Assembly: GCA_016199865.1 (NCBI GenBank)
Contig: JACQFV010000005.1
Span: 1 to 37,674 of the forward strand
DNA length: 37,674 nucleotides
Direction of reading: 5' to 3'
Source: Candidatus Zixiibacteriota bacterium
GTDB taxonomy: Bacteria; Zixibacteria; MSB-5A5; WJJR01
Positions 1,761 to 37,674 of this stretch are shown here, piece by piece (position 1 is the first letter of the stretch; every line of letters begins with the position of its first letter). The translations under genes were made by a program, and so were the position numbers. The notes under the pieces are model-generated. The model was not told the DNA's origin and searched no databases. It saw only the letters and a list, made by a program, of their open reading frames with translations.

Positions 1761-3815
1761 TCACGCCGGGGATGCGCCGGGAGCGATTTCTCCCAGCCGC
1801 TCGCCGCCAACGGCCCGAGCGGGGGCGGGCTTGGCCACAATAACGGGCGTAGGTTCGGCGGGGGGCGGGGTCGATTCACGTATGGGACTCAATTCCTCGC
1901 CGCGTAGGATCACGTCGATCTGATCGCCGTCCAAGATCTCACGTTCCAGGAGCGCCTTGGCCACGGCGTGCAGTTGATGGAGATTCTCCGAGAGCAGTTG
2001 CGTCGCTTTCGCCTCGGCTTCGGCGAGAATGCGCTTGACCTCATCGTCGATCTTCTGGGCGGTGCGTTCGGAGTAGTCACGGTGCCGCGCGATCTCCCGT
2101 CCCAGAAAAATCTCCTCCTGCTTCTTGCCGAAGGTCATGGCGCCGAGCGCGTCGGACATCCCCCACTCGCAGACCATCTTGTGCGCCAGCGCCGTGGCGC
2201 GCTCCAGATCGTTGCCGGCACCGGTGGTATACTGGTTGAACACGAGTTTTTCCGCGACTCTCCCACCCATCGTGTACATCAGACGCGCCTCCAGATATTC
2301 CTTGGAGTGGGTGTGCCGCTCATCGATCGGCAGGAAGTGAGTGACACCGAGAGCCATGCCCCGCGGGATGATCGTGACTTTGTGGACCGGGTCGGTATTC
2401 GGCGTCAGCTTGCCCACCAGCGCGTGACCGGCTTCATGGTAGGCGGTGGTCTTTTTCTCCTCCGGGGTGATCACCAAGGACCGCCGTTCGGTTCCCATCA
2501 TCACCTTATCCTTGGCGTTTTCAAAATCCTCCATCTCGACCTTGTCGCGGTTGCGCCGCGCCGCCAAGAGCGCCGCCTCATTGACCAGATTGGCGATGTC
2601 GGCGCCGGAGAGCCCCGGCGTGCCCCGCGCCAGAACCTTTAAGTCGACGTTGGCCGACAACGCGATCTTGCGGGTGTGCACTTTCAAGATGCCTTCGCGT
2701 CCGCGGACGTCGGGGGCATCGACCACCACCTGACGGTCAAAGCGGCCGGGACGCAACAGCGCGGGATCGAGAACATCGGGACGGTTGGTGGCCGCCAGGA
2801 GTATGACCCCTTCGTTGGATTCAAAGCCGTCCATCTCCACCAGCAATTGGTTCAAGGTCTGCTCACGTTCGTCATGGCCGCCGCCCAAGCCCGCCCCCCG
2901 GTGCCGTCCCACGGCGTCGATTTCATCGATGAAGATGATGCACGGCGCGGACCGTTTCCCCTGCTCGAACAAATCGCGAACCCGCGAGGCGCCCACGCCA
3001 ACGAACATCTCCACGAAATCGGAGCCGGACATGGAGAAGAAGGGGACTGAGGCCTCGCCGGCAACGGCGCGCGCCAGAAGCGTCTTGCCGGTGCCGGGCG
3101 GGCCGAGCAGGAGCACGCCCTTCGGAATCTTGCCGCCCAAACGCTGGAACCGACCGGGGTCGCGGAGAAAATCGATGACTTCCTCCAATTCCGCCTTCGC
3201 CTCCTCGGCCCCGGCCACGTCGCTGAAGGTGACCTTCGGACGGTCCTCAGTCAGCACGCGGGCGCGGCTCTTGCCGAAGGAAAAAATCCCCTTCGGCCCG
3301 GATTGCATCTGTCGGAACATGAACAGCCAGAAGAAAACGAGGATCAGCACCCACGGGGCGAAACCCAACAGCAGGCTGGTCCAATTGAGCCCCTCTTCTT
3401 CGGCTTTGATCTGGACTTTTTTCGTCTCCAGACGCGCCACCAGGGCCTGAGTGTCGGTCATGGGCAACAGTACCCGGAACTCCTTGACCTTGTTGGTGCG
3501 ATTGTTGTCGGTCTTCAAGACGTCGACTTTGAATTCGCCGGTTATGTGATGTTCGACAACCGTCACCGACACGACGTTGTCGGCGTCCAATTGTTCGAGG
3601 AATTCGCTGTAGGTGAAATCGGCGCCCTTCTGCCGGCCGAAACTGTAGTAGTTGACCAACAGCGCCGAGAGCGTGATCAACGCCACCCAGAAAATGAGCG
3701 TGCGCGACGACCGTTTCCATGAAAACGGCGGCCGCCCGCCGGGATCGGTCGACCCGCGCGGCGGACGCCCCTTCGGCGGGACATGATCGGAGTGTGGGGC
3801 GGTTGGTTCAGCCAC
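1761..3815 (-). CDS. ftsH: ATP-dependent zinc metalloprotease FtsH
   Basis: Two TM segments, Walker A GPPGTGKT, Walker [32 protein letters not shown], zinc motif HEAGH. Confidence 0.99.
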
Positions 3816-10492: not shown

Positions 10493-11599
10493 TCAGATCA
10501 CAGTGGCCGCGTTCATCTCCGCCAAAATCCCGACCGCCGGGTGCACCACGCGTCCGTCGCGCAGGTATATCCCCGCGCCAAATCGCGGCTGGTCGGACAG
10601 GACCCTGCTCAGACCCCCTTCAGCCATATTGCGCACGTAGGGAAATAGCGCATTGGCCAGGGCGAATGAGGCGGTGCGGGCCACCGCCGCGGGCATGTTG
10701 GGAATGCAGCAGTGAATCACCCCTTCGGCGACATAGGTCGGATCCGACAACGTTGTCGGACGCCCGGTCGCGCAGATCCCCCCCTGGTCAATGGAGCAAT
10801 CGACGATCACTGACCGCGGCTTCATCGACTGGACCATCTCCCGCGTGATCAGGATCGGCGGTTTGCCGCCATGCACCCAGACGGCGCCGATGACGACGTC
10901 GGCGTGGCGCAGCGCCCGCTCCAGATCGTAGCGATAGGAGAGATAGGTCACCACCCGCCGTTCGAAGAGGTGATCGGCCAGACGCAACCGCTCGGGATCG
11001 CTGTCGAACAGAACGACTTGGGCGCCCATGCCGATCGCGGCGCGCACCGCCGCCATGCCCACGGTCCCGCCGCCGATGACGACCACCTGCGCCGCCGGCA
11101 CCCCCGGCAATCCGGACAAGAGGATCCCGCGTCCCCCTTGCGGCAATTCGAGCAAGCGTGCCGCCAGAGACAGCGCCAAGGGCCCCGCAATCTCGCCCAT
11201 CACTTCGACGATGGGCCGACGGTTGGCGTCGTTTTCGATCCACTCGTAGGCCACGGCGGTAATGGACTTGTCGCACATGCCGTGCAGCGCCTCCGGCGAT
11301 AGCGTGACCAAGTGCCCGAACGACATGACCGTCTGCCCCGGCACCATGAGGTCGACGTCCTCGCGCTCAAAGGGCGCGACGCCGAGCACCAACTCCGCCC
11401 GACCGACGGCTTCGGCGTGGGAATAGACGACCTTGGCTCCGGCGGTCAGATAATCCTCGTCATTGAATCCCGCCGCCATGCCGGCATTGTGTTCGATGTA
11501 GACCTGATGGCCGCGCTGCGTGAGGAGGTGCGCCCCGGCCGGGACCATCGGCACCCGCCGCTCATCCAGACGGGTCTGTTTGATGACGCTGATGCTCAT
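10493..11599 (-). CDS. ald: Alanine dehydrogenase-like protein (AlaDH/PNT family), divergent active site
   Basis: ERRV, AYE, EIAG, GGRGILLSGLPGV, Rossmann VIGGGTVG, IDQGG, NMPAAVARTAS. The usual KVKEP motif reads GVAPF. Confidence 0.75.
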   Translation of the reverse strand: MSISVIKQTRLDERRVPMVPAGAHLLTQRGHQVYIEHNAGMAAGFNDEDYLTAGAKVVYSHAEAVGRAELVLGVAPFEREDVDLMVPGQTVMSFGHLVTLSPEALHGMCDKSITAVAYEWIENDANRRPIVEVMGEIAGPLALSLAARLLELPQGGRGILLSGLPGVPAAQVVVIGGGTVGMAAVRAAIGMGAQVVLFDSDPERLRLADHLFERRVVTYLSYRYDLERALRHADVVIGAVWVHGGKPPILITREMVQSMKPRSVIVDCSIDQGGICATGRPTTLSDPTYVAEGVIHCCIPNMPAAVARTASFALANALFPYVRNMAEGGLSRVLSDQPRFGAGIYLRDGRVVHPAVGILAEMNAATVI

Positions 11600-11659
11600 G
11601 GATTGTTCCTAAGGAATCTTCACGGGCACGGCAACCAGAGCCCGCCCGAGACAGGCCGC

Positions 11660-17866: not shown

Positions 17867-17982
17867 TCGCGGATTAGGATCCCGGGGGTGCATCTCCGAG
17901 TACCTTCTCGTCATGTGTGAATTGGCTCCCGGCGAACGTGGCGAGGCGGTTCCGGTCCCCCCGCTAAGAGAGAAAAAGCAGA

Positions 17983-18034
17983 CCCTTCGCTTCATCCCAT
18001 CCGCCATCGGCGGATGGGATTCGCTCAGGGTGAC
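17983..18034 (-). repeat. Solo copy of the GIY-YIG-associated 'CCYGAGCGA-[hairpin]-GA..CGARGG' repeat
   Basis: Minus strand: GTCACCCTGAGCGA-[ATCCCATCCGCC GAT GGCGGATGGGAT]-GAAGCGAAGGG. Same flanks as 35712-35751 and 37302-37341. Confidence 0.75.
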
Positions 18035-18089
18035 AGTAGCGGACTAGTCTGTGCCAATTCGCTCAAGACCAACCAGGAAACCGCGTTCG

Positions 18090-19937: not shown

Positions 19938-21248
19938 TCATAGGCCCGGAGGCCGCTGCAGATACTGGTCATGGAACTTGATGATTTTTCGCAATCGCGT
20001 CATCAAGAGCTTCGAGTGGCCGGCGGATATCCCCGATGCTCCGGAGTACTCCTCATAATCGTGTGCGACACCGGCGGCCGTCAGAGCGGCGTCGAACTCC
20101 CGATTCTGTTCCAGATACCCCAACTCGTCGTCTTCGCCCACGTCCATGTAGATCGGCATGTCTTGGAAGAGTGTCGGATTGGAGGCACGCCGGTTCACGA
20201 AGACGGTCTTCACGTCGGCCGAATCGTGCCACAGGCGCCAGACCGCCGGATCGGGCTGTCCGGTTCGGTCAAAGATCATATCCACGCCAAACCCGTTGGT
20301 GTCCGCGCCGGGAAACTTGATGGTGCGGGGACCGCTGGCCAAAGGACTGAAGAAATCCCATGGGCAGATCGTGTACCAGATGGGACGGAAGGGATCCTTA
20401 TATCTGAGACACCCCACGGAATCAAGGATCCGCAGAGGATGTGGCGAAAAAGCCGAGGACATGGCCAAGAACATTCGAGTGTTTGGCTGGTCCGCATGGA
20501 GACGAATCTGGGTGTACAGGGAAGTATCGCCGGCTGCTACCCCGCTTTCCGTCATAACATTGGGGACCAGATCCTTCCACACCCCGGACGGAATGCTCGG
20601 GTCGCCGATCGAGAGCATCCCGGATAGGGACGAAATCGAGGAAAACACCTGTGGATGGTCCAAGGCGTAGCGCAGAGCGCCGTATCCGCCCATCCCATGC
20701 CCGGAGATGGCCCGGGCTCCCGGCCCTGCCTGCGTGTAGACCTTGTACGCCGAGCCGGGCGCCTCCATGTGGTTGATCAACTCAGTGATCACTTCCTCGT
20801 ACATGGTGGTCGAGTCGGCATTGCGGTAGTACGACCCGCCGAAAACGTTTGAGGCATCCACCATGACGACCAGCATCCGCCCGATTTCCCCCTTGCTGTA
20901 CATGTCGTCGAGCAACGCCTGCAGCCCGTAGCGCAGGAAGTAGCCGGCATCGCCGTCGAAGTCATGCAAGAGATAGAGTACTGGAAAGGGCTGTTGCTGA
21001 ACGTTGAGCGGCTGATCCGACGCGTAGGCGACAATCACCTGCCGTGAGACCCGGTCATTGGCCGAATTCCGTTTCAATTCGTTGGTAAATCCGAAGGTCT
21101 CCATGAAGGGGTCCCGCTGCTGCACGGTCGTCACCCCCAGCGGATCGTCGTGCTGGGCGCAACCGGAAACCCCGCCCAGACCCGCACACGCGACCACCAA
21201 CGCCACGAACCATTTCATCGCCGGCATCCTGTCATCCTTTCCCATCAA
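19938..21248 (-). CDS. Lipoprotein with alpha/beta-hydrolase (esterase) fold; nucleophile Ser replaced by Gly
   Basis: Signal peptide ending VSG-C, FPVLYLLH, RAISGHGMGGYGAL (canonical GHSMGG), DVGEDDELG, C-terminal GH. ATGA overlap with the upstream gene. Confidence 0.85.
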   Translation of the reverse strand: MMGKDDRMPAMKWFVALVVACAGLGGVSGCAQHDDPLGVTTVQQRDPFMETFGFTNELKRNSANDRVSRQVIVAYASDQPLNVQQQPFPVLYLLHDFDGDAGYFLRYGLQALLDDMYSKGEIGRMLVVMVDASNVFGGSYYRNADSTTMYEEVITELINHMEAPGSAYKVYTQAGPGARAISGHGMGGYGALRYALDHPQVFSSISSLSGMLSIGDPSIPSGVWKDLVPNVMTESGVAAGDTSLYTQIRLHADQPNTRMFLAMSSAFSPHPLRILDSVGCLRYKDPFRPIWYTICPWDFFSPLASGPRTIKFPGADTNGFGVDMIFDRTGQPDPAVWRLWHDSADVKTVFVNRRASNPTLFQDMPIYMDVGEDDELGYLEQNREFDAALTAAGVAHDYEEYSGASGISAGHSKLLMTRLRKIIKFHDQYLQRPPGL

Positions 21249-26020: not shown

Positions 26021-27949
26021 ATGGGCATGAATCTCGTCCAGAAAATCATTTCCGCGCATCTGGTCGAGGGGACAGTGGCGGCGGGCGAGCCGATCGCCAT
26101 CAAGATCGACCAGACCCTCACGCAGGATGCGACCGGCACGATGGCCTATCTGCAGTTTGAGGCGATGGGAATCGACCGGGTGCGAACGGAAAAATCGGTG
26201 TCTTACGTCGACCACAACATGCTGCAGACCGGATTTGAGAACGCCGACGATCATCTGTACCTGCAAACGGTGGCGGCGCGTTACGGGATTGATTATTCCC
26301 GTCCCGGCAATGGCATCTGTCATCAGGTACACTTGGAGCGCTATGGCGTGCCGGGAAAAACCCTGCTCGGCTCGGATTCGCATACGCCGACCAATGGCGG
26401 ATTGGGGATGCTGGCCATCGGCGCCGGTGGGTTGGACGTCGCGGTCGCCATGGCCGGCGGCCCCTTCCACCTGACCATGCCGAAAGTGGTGCGGGTGCAC
26501 CTGACGGGCAAACTCGGCCCGTGGGTCGCCGCCAAGGACATCATCCTGGACATCCTCCGGCAATTGACCGTCAAAGGCGGGGTCGGCAAGATCCTCGAGT
26601 ACACCGGGGATGGCGTCAAGACGCTGAGCGTGCCGGAGCGGGCCACGATCACCAACATGGGCGCCGAACTGGGAGCCACGACCTCGATTTTTCCCTCGGA
26701 CGACAACACCCGTCGCTATCTGGCGCTGCAGAAACGGGAATCCGAGTACCGCGCCGTGGCGGCCGACCCGGATGCCACCTACGATGAACAAATCACGATC
26801 GACTTGACGGCCTTGGAGCCCTTGATCGCGCAGCCACATTCCCCCGACAAAGTCGTGCGCGTCCGCGACGTCGCCGGACTGAAAGTGGATCAGGTGTGCG
26901 TCGGTTCGTGCACGAATTCGTCCCTGTATGACCTTCTGGTCACCGCGGCGATCCTCAAAGGACGGCACGTGCATCCCGACGTCAGCATGACCGTGACACC
27001 GGGATCGCGTCAGGTGTTCACCGCGGTCTCGCAGTTGGGGGCACTGACCGAGATGATATCCGCCGGCGCCCGCATCCTTGAATCGGCGTGCGGCCCCTGC
27101 ATCGGGATGGGCCAGGCCCCGCCGTCGGGCGGTGTGTCGATCCGGAGTTTCAACCGCAATTTCGAGGGGCGGTCGGGGACCAAAGACGCCAACGTTTATC
27201 TCGCCTCGCCGCAGGTGTGCGCCGTCTGCGCGCTCTCTGGCACGATCACCGATCCGCGGACCTGGGGAGAAGAACCTACGGTCACGTTGCCGGAGGCGAT
27301 TCCGATCGATGACGCCCTGATCGTCCACGCGCCCGCCCAACGAGAGGCGATTACCGTGCGGCGCGGACCCAACATCAAGCCCCTGCCGCAACAGACGCCC
27401 CTGACCGGCCGGATCGCCGGCGAAGTGCTGCTGAAAGTCGGGGACAACATCACGACCGATCACATCATGCCCGCCGGGGCGAAGGTCTTGCCCCTGCGGT
27501 CGAACATTCCCGCCATCTCCGAGTTCGTCTTCGTGCGGGTCGATCCGGAATTTCCGCAGCGGGCCCGCGCCAAGGGGGGCGGCTTCATTGTCGGCGGCGA
27601 CAACTACGGTCAGGGGTCCTCACGGGAACACGCCGCACTCGCGCCGATGTTCCTCGGCGTGAGAGCGGTGATCGCCAAATCGTTTGCGCGTATCCACCAT
27701 GCCAACCTCGTCAACTTCGGCATTCCGCCATTGACCTTCGTCGATCCGGCCGATTACGACCGGATCGAGCAGGGGGACAATCTGGAGATCGACGCCGTCC
27801 CCGACCGGATTCGATCGGGAGATCGGCTCCTGGTTCGGAACAAGAGCAAGAATTCTGAGTTTTGGGTGACCTATGATCTGTCCGCCTTCAACAAAGCCGT
27901 CCTCTTGGACGGCGGCCTCTTGAACCACACGCGCCGTCACGCCGCCTGA
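26021..27949 (+). CDS. Aconitate hydratase (short ~640-aa type)
   Basis: QDATGTMA, GICHQ, GSDSHT, GSCTN, CGPCIG, NRNFEGR, TTDHI, GSSREHAA. Confidence 0.93.
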   Translation: MGMNLVQKIISAHLVEGTVAAGEPIAIKIDQTLTQDATGTMAYLQFEAMGIDRVRTEKSVSYVDHNMLQTGFENADDHLYLQTVAARYGIDYSRPGNGICHQVHLERYGVPGKTLLGSDSHTPTNGGLGMLAIGAGGLDVAVAMAGGPFHLTMPKVVRVHLTGKLGPWVAAKDIILDILRQLTVKGGVGKILEYTGDGVKTLSVPERATITNMGAELGATTSIFPSDDNTRRYLALQKRESEYRAVAADPDATYDEQITIDLTALEPLIAQPHSPDKVVRVRDVAGLKVDQVCVGSCTNSSLYDLLVTAAILKGRHVHPDVSMTVTPGSRQVFTAVSQLGALTEMISAGARILESACGPCIGMGQAPPSGGVSIRSFNRNFEGRSGTKDANVYLASPQVCAVCALSGTITDPRTWGEEPTVTLPEAIPIDDALIVHAPAQREAITVRRGPNIKPLPQQTPLTGRIAGEVLLKVGDNITTDHIMPAGAKVLPLRSNIPAISEFVFVRVDPEFPQRARAKGGGFIVGGDNYGQGSSREHAALAPMFLGVRAVIAKSFARIHHANLVNFGIPPLTFVDPADYDRIEQGDNLEIDAVPDRIRSGDRLLVRNKSKNSEFWVTYDLSAFNKAVLLDGGLLNHTRRHAA

Positions 27950-35430: not shown

Positions 35431-35619
35431 GCCGATTCCCGGAACAGGGGCGCTGAAGAATGCCGACCCCGAGTTGTTTGCGAACCCGATGGCATCCTGG
35501 CGTTTGGGCTGGCTGTAAGGTGCCGGAAATGGTATCATGGGGGTTCTTCCGGTGGCGTGACCCTGTCCGCAAGAGATAGGGCGCGTGATCGGCGCCGCGT
35601 CTCAGTGGCGACGCAAAAG

Positions 35620-35707
35620 GGAGAGGTGGCCGAGTCGGCTTAAGGCAGCTGCCTGCTAAGCAGTTAGTGGGGAAACCCGCTCCCGGGTTCGAATCCCGGC
35701 CTCTCCG
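35620..35707 (+). tRNA. tRNA-Ser(GCT), CCA not encoded
   Basis: Acceptor GGAGAGG/CCTCTCC plus G discriminator. Anticodon arm GCTGC-CTGCTAA-GCAGT. Long variable arm AGTGGG-GAAA-CCCGCT. T arm CCGGG-TTCGAAT-CCCGG. Confidence 0.97.
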
Positions 35708-36083
35708 TTTTTCCTGAGCGAATTTCGGCGGAGCCGAAATGAGTCGAAGGGTTACCCGATGACCAACGGACGCAAACCTTGGTTCGTTTATCTCGTTCGC
35801 TGTCGAGATGGCTCGATCTATGCAGGAATCACCGACGACATCAACGCGCGGATTAAGAAACACAACAGCGGCAAGGGCGCCACGTATACCGCTCAACGCC
35901 GTCCGGTGACGCTCCTGTTTTCCGAACCTCATCCCGATCAGAGTAGTGCTCGCCGTCGGGAGATTCAATTGAAGGGCTGGACAAGGGAAAAGAAGGAACA
36001 ACTCATTGCGGGTTTCCCTCGACCTCACTCGGGATGAATCCCTCGGAGGAGTTCGGGATAGACGAATCACGGTCTCTCCACCA
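35693..36083 (+). mobile_element. Unit 1: tRNA 3' end / structured repeat / GIY-YIG gene / inverted repeat / degenerate tRNA 3' end with CCA
   Basis: Left repeat at 35712-35751. Right inverted repeats TCCCTCG-N7-TCGGGAT twice (36015-36035, 36039-36059). CGAATCACGGTCTCTCC-ACCA (36063-36083) matches tRNA 35690-35706 at 15/17. Confidence 0.65.
35759..36037 (+). CDS. Stand-alone GIY-YIG nuclease (UPF0213/YhbQ-like), copy 1
   Basis: WFVYLVRCRDGSIYAGIT...R...HNSGKGATYT..RRPV.L...E.......A..RE.QLK. Confidence 0.93.
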   Translation: MTNGRKPWFVYLVRCRDGSIYAGITDDINARIKKHNSGKGATYTAQRRPVTLLFSEPHPDQSSARRREIQLKGWTREKKEQLIAGFPRPHSG

Positions 36084-36180
36084 TAAGAAAATGGCACACC
36101 AGCACCCGGCCCTACCGGACGTGTTGTATTGGTTGAGTGAAGAGAGGGTCTGCACCCAAAGTGGAATCTGAAGACTTCAG

Positions 36181-36558
36181 ATGAAGAAACCGATCAGCGT
36201 CGACGCGTACATCGCCGCGGCACCCAGGGAAGTGCGGGGAAGACTGAATCAGGTTCGCTCAGCAATCAGGAAAGCAGCCCCCAAAGCGATGGAAAGAATA
36301 AGCTACGGGATGCCTTTCTACGAGTACGGGGGTTCGGGCTACAAGGGTCGATTGATTTACTTTGCCGCGTTCAAAGAACACATCGGCGTGTTCATACCAC
36401 CGTCGCAGGGGGCGGTACCGCGTGAAATGGAGATGTATCGAACCGCCAAGTCTTCATTTCGTTTCCCGCTGAAAGAGCCGATCCCGCTGGGAGTGATCAG
36501 CAGAACGGTGAAGCAACTGGTAAGGCAAAGAGTCGCGGCAAACAGAATGAAGTCATGA
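36181..36558 (+). CDS. DUF1801 (YdhG-like) protein
   Basis: VDAYIAAAP...R..L..VR.AIRKAAP.A.ERISYGMPFY...LIYFAAFKEHIG...FRFPL.EPIP. Confidence 0.85.
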   Translation: MKKPISVDAYIAAAPREVRGRLNQVRSAIRKAAPKAMERISYGMPFYEYGGSGYKGRLIYFAAFKEHIGVFIPPSQGAVPREMEMYRTAKSSFRFPLKEPIPLGVISRTVKQLVRQRVAANRMKS

Positions 36559-36616
36559 TCGTGTTGCGGACAAGTTAAGGGTCTTGGAAGCACGTTTCAG
36601 ATCTGGATAACGACCT

Positions 36617-37114
36617 GTGAAGAGCAGAACAATACTGATCGCCATGGCGGTCGCGGCTTTCGAGGTAGCAGGGCTTTTTCTCTTCGGACGACCAGGCGGC
36701 CGTCCTGAGCGTCTACCGAAGGGTACTCCAGCCGAATTCAATCTCATCTTCAAGTATGACGGAAGCGTGCTGAATACCTTTGAGCATACCTATACCAAGG
36801 ACATGGTGGGTGATCCCTCCATCACGATCAGGTTTGAACTTTCGCAGAGCGAACTGGCCCAAGTCTATCAGAAAATATATGACTTGGATCCATACGATGT
36901 CGGCCAACGGACGAGTGGGAATGGCGCGAGAATCCCCTGCTCGTACTTCTTCCTGAGAGTTCAGGTTGATTCAACCACGAAAGAAATGTCGTGGAGTGAT
37001 TGCCGGGGATTGGTGAACGACACACTGCAGCAGTTGACCGAGTACATCATCTCAGTAATTGAGTCAAAAGAAGACTACAAGAGACTGCCGGCGCCAAGAT
37101 TCTTTCGCTATTGA
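36617..37114 (+). CDS. Hypothetical protein with N-terminal hydrophobic anchor/signal
   Basis: 165-aa ORF with a hydrophobic N-terminus, two Cys residues and natural composition. Family not recognised. Confidence 0.7.
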   Translation: MKSRTILIAMAVAAFEVAGLFLFGRPGGRPERLPKGTPAEFNLIFKYDGSVLNTFEHTYTKDMVGDPSITIRFELSQSELAQVYQKIYDLDPYDVGQRTSGNGARIPCSYFFLRVQVDSTTKEMSWSDCRGLVNDTLQQLTEYIISVIESKEDYKRLPAPRFFRY

Positions 37115-37282
37115 TGATACCCGGAGGGATTTCCTGCCAAAGAGAAACTCAACATCGCCGATTCTGCTCTGGTTCCCGCGCATCTTTCGTGTGGACAAGA
37201 CGAGGCCACTCAATTGTCAACGGAAATGCAACGCCATGAAAATGGTTCCCGGGCTTACGCTGATGGCGGCGGCAATCGAGGC

Positions 37283-37299
37283 ATCCCGGCCTCTCCGTT
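37283..37299 (+). repeat. Exact 17-bp direct repeat of the tRNA-Ser 3' end (att-like)
   Basis: ATCCCGGCCTCTCCGTT, identical to 35693-35709, 1590 bp apart. Confidence 0.92.
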
Positions 37300-37371
37300 C
37301 ATCCCGAGCGAGTTCCGCCTCTGGCGGAACGAGTCGAGGGACTTATCCTGAACGATTCCCGAGATAAACGA

Positions 37372-37650
37372 ATGCCCAACGCCCGCAATCCCTGGTATGT
37401 CTACCTTCTCCGCTGTTCTGACGGTTCCATCTACACCGGAATATCGAAAGACGTTGACACCCGGGTGAAGAAGCACAATGCCGGTGCCGGTGCCGTCTAC
37501 ACGGCCCAGCGGCGTCCTGTATCTCTGATATACCAAGAACGACACCGCAACCAGAGTTCGGCGATGGTGAGAGAACGGCAGATCAAGCGGCTGAGGAAGG
37601 CCCAGAAAGAAGTCCTCGCCTTGGGATCGCCCCGGCTGCATTCGCAATGA
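37372..37650 (+). CDS. Stand-alone GIY-YIG nuclease (UPF0213/YhbQ-like), copy 2
   Basis: WYVYLLRCSDGSIYTGIS...R...HNAGAGAVYT..RRPV...RE.QIK. Colinear with copy 1, 53/92 identical by hand count. Confidence 0.93.
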   Translation: MPNARNPWYVYLLRCSDGSIYTGISKDVDTRVKKHNAGAGAVYTAQRRPVSLIYQERHRNQSSAMVRERQIKRLRKAQKEVLALGSPRLHSQ

Positions 37651-37674
37651 GAAGCCCGCACTCCGCGCAAGATT

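Follow-up and report, generated by a model that had tools for sequence, protein, structure and literature searches.

A dispersed hairpin repeat as a possible companion of one branch of UPF0213 GIY-YIG proteins

The stretch of DNA analysed here, referred to as the window, comprises 37,674 nt of contig JACQFV010000005.1 from Candidatus Zixiibacteriota bacterium. Near its right end lie two genes for 92-residue GIY-YIG proteins of the UPF0213/YhbQ/YazA type (units 1 and 2), each preceded by a structured repeat. We tentatively propose, with somewhat less than even confidence, that these left-end repeats belong to a dispersed hairpin family resembling repetitive extragenic palindromes (REPs) and their REPIN doublets, that the family is the companion of one Slx1-like branch of UPF0213, and that it is recognised as folded DNA. 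Among the options raised by a first-pass annotation of this DNA, namely attC-like sites, REP-like sites or an RNA element on a tRNA read-through transcript, the REP-like one fits best, with a solo copy elsewhere in the window, inverted copies at the 3' end of the gene and REPIN-like doublets in other genomes.

The left repeat of unit 1 (W1L; 35705–35753, plus strand) adjoins a tRNA-Ser(GCT) gene (35620–35707, plus strand; called by ARAGORN, 58.4 bits with the Rfam tRNA model). It reads TCCTGAGCGA (35712–35721), stem arm ATTTCGGC (35722–35729), loop GGA, stem arm GCCGAAAT (35733–35740) and GAGTCGAAGGG (35741–35751), and its counterpart at unit 2 (W2L; 37295–37343, plus strand) reads TCCCGAGCGA (37302–37311), GTTCCGCC/TCT/GGCGGAAC (37312–37330) and GAGTCGAGGGA (37331–37341). 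Both fold, and they score 70.8 and 72 bits, respectively, with the covariance model described below. Their common form is TCCYGAGCGA-[8-bp stem, 3-nt loop]-GAGTCGARGG; the outer helix is TCCT/AGGG in W1L, with the conserved GAGCGA...GAGTCGA inside it, and TCCC/GGGA in W2L, and a repeat search recovers the two units as a 58-nt direct repeat of 78% identity. Positions, letters, the 8-bp stem and the 3-nt loop are all as first annotated, and so are the three inner pairs that differ between the units on both arms without a single mismatch (A-T to G-C, T-A to C-G and G-C to C-G). A fourth compensated pair, not listed at the time, lies in the outer helix (T-A versus C-G, in CCT..AGG versus CCC..GGG). 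Given three changes in each 8-nt arm, the chance that they would fall on the same three pairs and restore the complementary base is about 1/56 × 1/27, or about 7e-4. The equal offset claimed for the two repeats also holds, both motifs starting 4 nt past ...CCTCTCCG; what precedes unit 2 is the tRNA 3' end alone, copied over 17 nt (37283–37299), and not a tRNA.

Gene 1 (35759–36037, plus strand; PF01541, E 2.5e-19) is bracketed by the motif. An inverted, hairpin-less copy, R1 (TCCCGAGTGAGGTCGAGGGA; 36013–36041, minus strand, core 36015–36034), overlaps its 3' end and encodes its last seven codons (FPRPHSG), while the repeat flank gives the stop codon. The exact pattern matched R1 once against a chance mean of 0.08, R1 is 89% complementary to the unit 2 left end as an inverted repeat, and the covariance model assigns it E values of 0.16–0.73. 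Abutting R1 is a second, degenerate inverted copy, R2 (TCGTCTA-TCCCGAA-CTCCTC-CGAGGGA; 36037–36065, minus strand), which reaches E 0.0079 with filters off, and a copy in the same place in the orthologous locus reaches E 0.0056. A degenerate direct copy of the tRNA 3' end (GAATCACGGTCTCTCCA, 14/17; 36064–36080, plus strand) then closes the cassette, so that the unit, a motif-bracketed gene flanked by tRNA 3'-end copies, is larger than previously described. An earlier candidate for the right flank, a minus-strand tRNA-end copy, was rejected when the covariance model identified R2 there, and only the plus-strand copy stands. At gene 2 (37372–37650, plus strand; PF01541, E 2e-17), the 3' end has a weak likeness to the inverted repeat, and the window stops 24 nt further on. 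The stretch from W2L to the start codon of this gene (37343–37371, plus strand) contains the repeat's 5' half twice, each time in partial form (TTATCCTGAACGA and TTCCCGAGATAAACGA); these make up direct repeat family D3, and their piling up before gene 2 suggests repeated insertion or recombination at the motif.

The orthologous locus (L001) comes from a Zixibacteriota metagenome-assembled genome (MAG), and its protein, 78% identical, is the closest among the best 80 of 556 GIY-YIG relatives kept from a genome-contig collection. Its upstream open reading frames (ORFs) match the layout of the window's cytochrome b and Rieske genes, as judged by ORF size and position. The order is tRNA-Ser(GCT), a 4-nt spacer, a repeat with a 19-nt hairpin (L001L), the gene, two hairpin-less inverted copies and a tRNA-end copy (17/18), and the cassette measures 356 nt from tRNA to copy both here and in unit 1. 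The hairpin, GTCCCGCC-AAA-AGCGGAAC, is nearer to that of unit 2 than to that of unit 1. The GIY-YIG frame of this locus (2980–3351) stays open across the two inverted repeats and the copied tRNA end and encodes 123 residues rather than 92, and the shift relative to the window lies in a one-base difference in a C run.

A solo copy, W3, sits far from the units (17981–18037, minus strand; CCCTGAGCGA-[ATCCCATCCGCC GAT GGCGGATGGGAT]-GAAGCGAAGGG). The covariance model scores it at 30.2 bits (E 3.5e-6 / 2.6e-7). Its stem is a perfect 12 bp closed by a 3-nt loop, unlike units 1 and 2 in sequence, and it folds as single-stranded DNA with z scores of -6.8 and -5.4. The genes on either side of W3 encode an M29 peptidase and a GDSL lipase (Pfam assignments); W3 lies in the spacer, antisense to both, with no tRNA and no GIY-YIG gene in its neighbourhood. 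Directly after it, on the minus strand, comes a T-rich run. The window thus holds five copies, four of them at the GIY-YIG units; one further match (11558–11604, covariance model E 0.024) lies inside a coding start, has no hairpin and was taken as chance.

Across all copies the architecture is shared: a 5' flank CCGYTCA, an outer helix of 4–5 bp, a conserved GAG...TCGA, and a centre consisting of either a 4–6 nt loop or a further helix, which in the Zixibacteria copies comprises 8–12 perfect pairs. The letters of the outer helix vary in step (TCCT/AGGA, TCCC/GGGA, CCCT/AGGG, GGCT/AGCC and TGCT/AGCA), and the purine-rich GAG...TCGA internal loop may form tandem G.A pairs closed by G-C. In the window the 5' flank (35705–35711 and 37295–37301) opens with CCG, the last three bases of the tRNA or of its copy; the flank was also noted at 2923–2929 of a Chloroflexota locus (L068) and in copies from the loci labelled L075, L082, L084 and L090 below. 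In many copies CGYTCA can pair with the TGAGCG that follows, forming a small alternative hairpin.

Covariation supports this structure. In an alignment of three copies, 95.2% of cells are paired and both sides have changed in 5 of 14 pairs. Shuffles average 2.0 such pairs, with six of 500 reaching as high a count, and slid controls gave 0–1. With five hairpin-bearing copies (W1L, W2L, L001L, W3 and a Sphingobium copy, L084b), 95.6% of 68 cells pair, and nine of the 14 pairs, in 12 cells, have changed on both sides. None of 500 shuffles reached the covariation score or the paired percentage, two of 500 reached the pair count, slid controls again gave 0–1, and RNAalifold returned the same structure. 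Single copies fold with modest z scores, -1.26 and -3.02 as RNA and -2.3 to -2.8 as single-stranded DNA on both strands. On the covariation check suggested in the first-pass annotation, the five-copy alignment beats shuffles and further copies are paired through other stems; L001L contains two uncompensated C.A cells.

Sequence conservation gives an argument separate from the covariance model. Between units 1 and 2 the flanks are identical at 18/21 positions, the hairpin at 10/19 and third codon positions at 24/79; between unit 1 and L001 the values are 19/21, 9/19 and 44/79. The flanks are under constraint, and the stems remain perfectly paired between units 1 and 2, where third positions are saturated. 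Of the idea that structure rather than stem sequence is selected, the preserved pairing with changed letters and the conservation of the flanks beyond neutral expectation stand; selection as the cause is not separable from mutation that preserves palindromes. The opposing idea, that the hairpins are unrelated palindromic insertions, meets a divided result. The three tRNA-side hairpins are homologous, given their shared position, their 19-nt length and 5–7 of 8 stem letters in common, whereas the centres in other phyla are unrelated and look like separate additions at the same site.

A covariance model built from the three tRNA-side copies (W1L, W2L and the left repeat of L001) and run over 520 kb returned 20 matches at E <= 0.01 in 6 of 84 sources. 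A loose regular expression run over 80 loci gave 19 matches against 4–14 in shuffles, most of which are therefore chance, and the covariance model upheld only the gene-adjacent ones in L001, L068 and L075. In the Chloroflexota MAG (L068), the GIY-YIG gene lies between 28-nt inverted copies of TCCGCTCATCCTGAGCCTGTCGAAGGAC (inverted repeat z 13.7). In Allosphingosinicella (L075), five copies surround the gene, with a nested centre and a 51-nt inverted repeat (z 24.7), and copies c2 and c4 differ by two compensated pairs. A Sphingomonas parapaucimobilis plasmid (L082) has five hairpin-less copies with the outer helix GGCT/AGCC, one of them at the gene 3' end, and in Methylobacterium bullatum (L085) the gene has a single copy to either side, of which one has the stem GCCCGC/GCGGGC.

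Copies also occur without a GIY-YIG gene. A Sphingobium plasmid (L084) carries three intergenic ones in 50 kb, among them L084b, TCCTGAGCG-[CCTGCT GCA AGCAGG]-CAGTCGAAGGG, and a Comamonas plasmid (L090) carries four, likewise intergenic, in 40 kb as two head-to-head doublets (19969–20031 and 26273–26335) that fold into long palindromes. Head-to-head doublets are also formed by L075 c1/c2 and c4/c5 and by L082 a/b and d/e; there are none in the window. Nested copies, whose centre contains another full repeat with a variable helix of its own, were seen at L075 2744–3390 and at L081 1495–1665. When the core was searched against plasmids with blastn, 75 records matched, mostly without an annotated feature under the match; the 24 E. 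coli and 9 Moraxella matches are partial. The unit 2 left end gave a sole plasmid match, 31 nt in a Roseomonas ATPase gene, which was taken as chance. A GIY-YIG match in a Gemmatimonadales MAG is followed, about 0.8 kb downstream (L012 4015–4051), by a palindrome that resembles the motif, TCATCCCGAGGGAGCGTAGCGACCGAGGGAT (covariance model E 1.2). Adjacency to a tRNA was rejected as a general trait of the GIY-YIG genes, as a tRNA lies directly upstream on the same strand in 1/80 loci and any tRNA is present in 3/80. A literature search found the core sequence printed in no paper, and no paper tying GIY-YIG genes to REP-like repeats.

The proteins of units 1 and 2 are 58% identical, each with a single domain at residues 8–80. 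The match to PDB 1zg2 (E 1.9e-18) and to 1ywl is accompanied, for the unit 1 protein, by 43–45% identity to E. coli YhbQ and 49% to B. subtilis YazA; NCBIfam had no match for any of four proteins scanned. YhbQ and YazA are said, in a review (PMC7017083), to belong to the Slx1 family of structure-selective nucleases. The 89 GIY-YIG genes considered comprise 80 loci, the two window units and seven plasmid loci, and seven of the 89 have the repeat within about 150 nt. In a quick tree of 86 rows (L036, L050 and L086 were left out for in-frame stops), these seven fall into two groups, the Zixibacteria genes and a clade that joins the Chloroflexota gene with three alphaproteobacterial ones (L068, L075, L082 and L085), with a Shimodaira–Hasegawa-like approximate likelihood ratio test (SH-aLRT) value of 99 and the repeat in 4/4. 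The motif label requires three changes on the tree against a shuffle mean of 6.8, and none of 500 shuffles was as low. The motif brackets the gene in unit 1, L001, L068, L075 and L082, and a translated inverted repeat, such as FPRLRSG, forms the protein end in 13 of 54 homologue clusters; among the 12 closest clusters, 11 have it.

Some homologues show other features. The predicted N-terminus of homologue P0052 (...PELVEGP...) equals the translated sense-strand repeat (CCTGAGCTTGTCGAAGG-like), and its gene call probably starts too far upstream. On an Acidiphilium multivorum plasmid (L083 1020–1510), a GIY-YIG gene follows two tRNA genes, the latter read by eye, at about 25 nt; an HNH endonuclease gene and an IS66 transposase are close by, and there is no repeat copy. 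A GIY-YIG match between rnc and era on a Sphingomonas paeninsulae plasmid (L086 701–946) has an in-frame stop, no repeat beside it, and may be a pseudogene.

In the arrangement seen, a sense copy stands before the gene and one or two inverted copies supply its last codons and stop; in Zixibacteria the resulting cassette of about 356 nt sits directly behind tRNA-Ser, with a tRNA 3'-end copy at its far border. Based on these observations, we propose a hypothetical scheme, in which (i) the repeat would fold as single-stranded or cruciform DNA; (ii) the adjacent structure-selective nuclease would recognise it by its shape and conserved internal loop, akin to RAYT transposases acting on REPs; and (iii) both repeats and cassette would be maintained or spread through this recognition. 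That the folded form is DNA rather than RNA is suggested by the occurrence of both orientations relative to genes, the equal folding of single-stranded DNA on both strands and the lack of inner G-U pairs on the sense strand.

The repeat could instead act as RNA. As part of both the tRNA-Ser precursor, in its 3' trailer, and the GIY-YIG mRNA, in its 5' leader, it would mark tRNA 3' processing, protect the mRNA 5' end and mask the ribosome-binding site, the last since AAGGG, the 3' outer arm, is the likely Shine–Dalgarno sequence. AAGGG ends 7 nt before the unit 1 ATG, L001 has the same layout, and the arm is paired in the sense-strand RNA fold. The gap of about 50 nt between tRNA and ATG is motif throughout, with no promoter-like site found in it, and the T.G pairs in the outer helices of W1L and L084b would be tolerated in RNA. 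We nevertheless consider this reading unlikely, since the motif is inverted at the gene 3' end, W3 is antisense to both neighbours, as is the upstream copy of L085 to its gene, and unit 2 lacks a tRNA and has its motif ending 30 nt before the ATG. Moreover, the sense-strand inner stems comprise 40 Watson–Crick pairs and 0 G-U, and the L001L defects are C.A on the sense strand and G.T wobbles on the other. Rfam 15 yielded only the tRNA at gathering threshold and nothing credible at E <= 10 on 35600–37674, nor anything credible at E up to 1 in L001, L068 and L075. Separately, a scan for terminator-like GC-rich hairpins with a T run found none at 35712–35751 or 37302–37341. The read-through transcript once suggested for these repeats is thus weakened by the two orientations, the solo copy without tRNA and the missing G-U pairs, and the RNA role retains some plausibility at the tRNA-side copies, where AAGGG occupies the position of a ribosome-binding site. 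A resemblance to a hammerhead core (CUGANGA...GAAA) was rejected by eye, unit 2 having C at the invariant U, and Rfam gave no match.

An equally improbable alternative is that the repeats are relics of a palindromic element resembling miniature inverted-repeat transposable elements (MITEs), with no present function. Their complementarity would then stem not from selection but from a mutational process such as templated correction within quasi-palindromes or fresh palindromic insertion, and the GIY-YIG link from hitch-hiking. This would accommodate the hairpin-less forms (R1, L068, L082 and L090), whose existence makes the central helix an addition to a base form, as well as the centres of other phyla, unrelated in sequence and length, the nested copies in L075 and L081, the half copies heaped before gene 2, the stems that are perfect Watson–Crick on both strands in the manner of DNA palindromes, and the decay of L001L. 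It accounts poorly for flanks that are 86–90% identical where third codon positions are 30–56% identical, for homologous rather than independently inserted tRNA-side hairpins, for a translated inverted repeat that stays in frame in the 13 clusters, and for a motif presence that tracks the GIY-YIG tree.

The surroundings of the cassette raise the question of how it arrived. The last 17 nt of the tRNA (35691–35707) recur downstream, and the copies set three segments apart (36064–36080 with three mismatches, 37281–37297 with one). The second copy extends over 37281–37299 (plus strand), within which 37283–37299 is identical to 35693–35709. These duplications show that the tRNA-Ser 3' end is where the cassettes came in or were stacked. 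The 1.2 kb between the two copies (36081–37280) carries, within 36181–37114 on the plus strand, a DUF1801 gene (36181–36558) and a 165-residue ORF (36617–37114) with a hydrophobic N-terminus and no family match; it encodes no recombinase and is missing from L001, which also lacks unit 2. The remaining window is ordinary chromosome, with FtsH, TilS, UvrA, GcvT and cytochromes.

If the hairpin were part of an attC- or att-like recombination site used by a recombinase encoded elsewhere, the cassettes would have integrated site-specifically at tRNA-Ser. Duplication of a tRNA 3' end is the usual scar of integration into tRNA genes, and the copies dividing the three segments, the 17/18 copy in L001 and the identical 4-nt offset of both left repeats would all fit. 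This explanation is nonetheless highly unlikely, since Pfam finds no integrase or transposase family among the 32 window ORFs scanned, in a window that ends at 37674, 24 nt past gene 2, no recombinase is encoded between the tRNA-end repeats within that sequence, and the unit 1 cassette has space only for the 92-residue gene. Furthermore, the motif occurs without a tRNA in L068, L075, L082, L085, L084, L090 and W3. The attC option in particular finds no support, as there are no extrahelical bases, no RYYYAAC/GTTRRRY and an element that lies 5' of the gene.

Several points weigh against the REP-like, DNA-based reading that we prefer. Only five hairpin-bearing copies can be aligned, in an alignment fitted to the covariance model, and its cells are not independent, because L001L is the orthologue of W1L and W2L shares descent with them; the counts therefore overstate independent events; to this are added the uncompensated cells of L001L. 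Templated repair can keep palindromes perfect without selection. The repeat is absent from the vicinity of 82 of the 89 GIY-YIG genes, including 77/80 genome-contig loci and 5/7 plasmid loci, and the copies flanking the gene in L085 point outward, not inward, the upstream one being antisense. Another enzyme could move the sphingomonad copies, as some of those in L075 and L084 have GTAG, the tag of RAYT-type REPs, beside the inner stem; the window copies have GCGA before the stem. The count of five copies covers only 37.7 kb of the host genome. In RefSeq, E. coli YhbQ is listed as a DNA damage response exodeoxyribonuclease, we know of no experiment tying UPF0213 proteins to hairpins, and to our knowledge the bacterial members YhbQ and YazA have no established substrate.

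A bolder extension of the companion hypothesis, to which we give rather low credence, is that one UPF0213 clade is the dedicated enzyme of these cross-phylum hairpin repeats, a GIY-YIG counterpart of the RAYT–REPIN pair, and that the integrase-less Zixibacteria cassette of about 356 nt enters the tRNA-Ser 3' end with the tRNA regenerated, since the final bases of the tRNA are also the first bases of the 5' flank CCGYTCA. UPF0213 is widespread and two structures are solved, and a cognate repeat bracketing the gene in at least three phyla would offer a concrete candidate substrate. If true, this would constitute a second, unrelated nuclease family in a REP-like partnership with the host genome, and the tiny cassettes behind tRNA-Ser would be an unusually small integrase-less insertion unit. 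Even if the repeats are passive palindromes, they are of use for annotation, given spurious ORF extensions and conserved 'protein' tails like FPRLRSG.

Known systems resemble this arrangement in parts. The relatives Slx1 and UPF0213 (YhbQ, YazA; PDB 1zg2, 1ywl) share the same GIY-YIG/URI domain with the gene products described here, which, like YhbQ and YazA, have it as a stand-alone domain of about 90–100 residues and have neither the zinc finger nor the Slx4 partner of Slx1; no cognate repeat for such proteins was found in the literature search. GIY-YIG homing endonucleases such as I-TevI and Seg join this domain to a C-terminal DNA-binding domain, in contrast to the two single-domain 92-residue ORFs. 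Ends of IS200/IS605 insertion sequences and MITEs likewise have hairpins and short non-autonomous copies; in contrast to IS200/IS605, there is no TnpA/TnpB here, the ends are inverted rather than in the same orientation, and no short target duplication was seen. As in integrative islands at tRNA 3' ends, a tRNA-end duplication of 15–18 nt bounds each segment, the tRNA is intact and segments are stacked behind one tRNA, but here the DNA between the repeats encodes no integrase, the smallest segment measures only about 356 nt, and in other phyla the structured repeat occurs independently of tRNAs.

Integron attC sites, too, are imperfect palindromes that keep structure over sequence and separate gene cassettes, and a folded single strand is the proposed active form of both. 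Their consensus comprises R''/L''-L'/R' boxes (RYYYAAC ... GTTRRRY) and extrahelical bases. The window lacks IntI, attI and Pc, and the repeats have perfect stems without bulges and no R/L boxes, GTTCCGC and GCGGAAC falling outside RYYYAAC...GTTRRRY; they also stand both 5' and 3' of the gene, with solo copies far from any cassette. The closest parallel is the REP/REPIN–RAYT system, with its short extragenic palindromes that fold as stem-loops, its solo copies and head-to-head doublets, its one small nuclease gene between inverted copies and its conserved flank letters beside a variable helix. In that system GTAG or CGTC reportedly marks one end of the REP palindrome, a tag that the window copies lack. 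REP copies are numerous and dispersed within one genome; the counts here are 5 in the 37.7-kb window, 3 in 50 kb of Sphingobium and 4 in 40 kb of the Comamonas plasmid. In contrast to RAYT, a Y1 HUH enzyme, the flanked gene encodes a 92-residue GIY-YIG (UPF0213) protein, the conserved part of the repeat is an internal loop between two helices, and the inverted copy extends into the end of the coding sequence.

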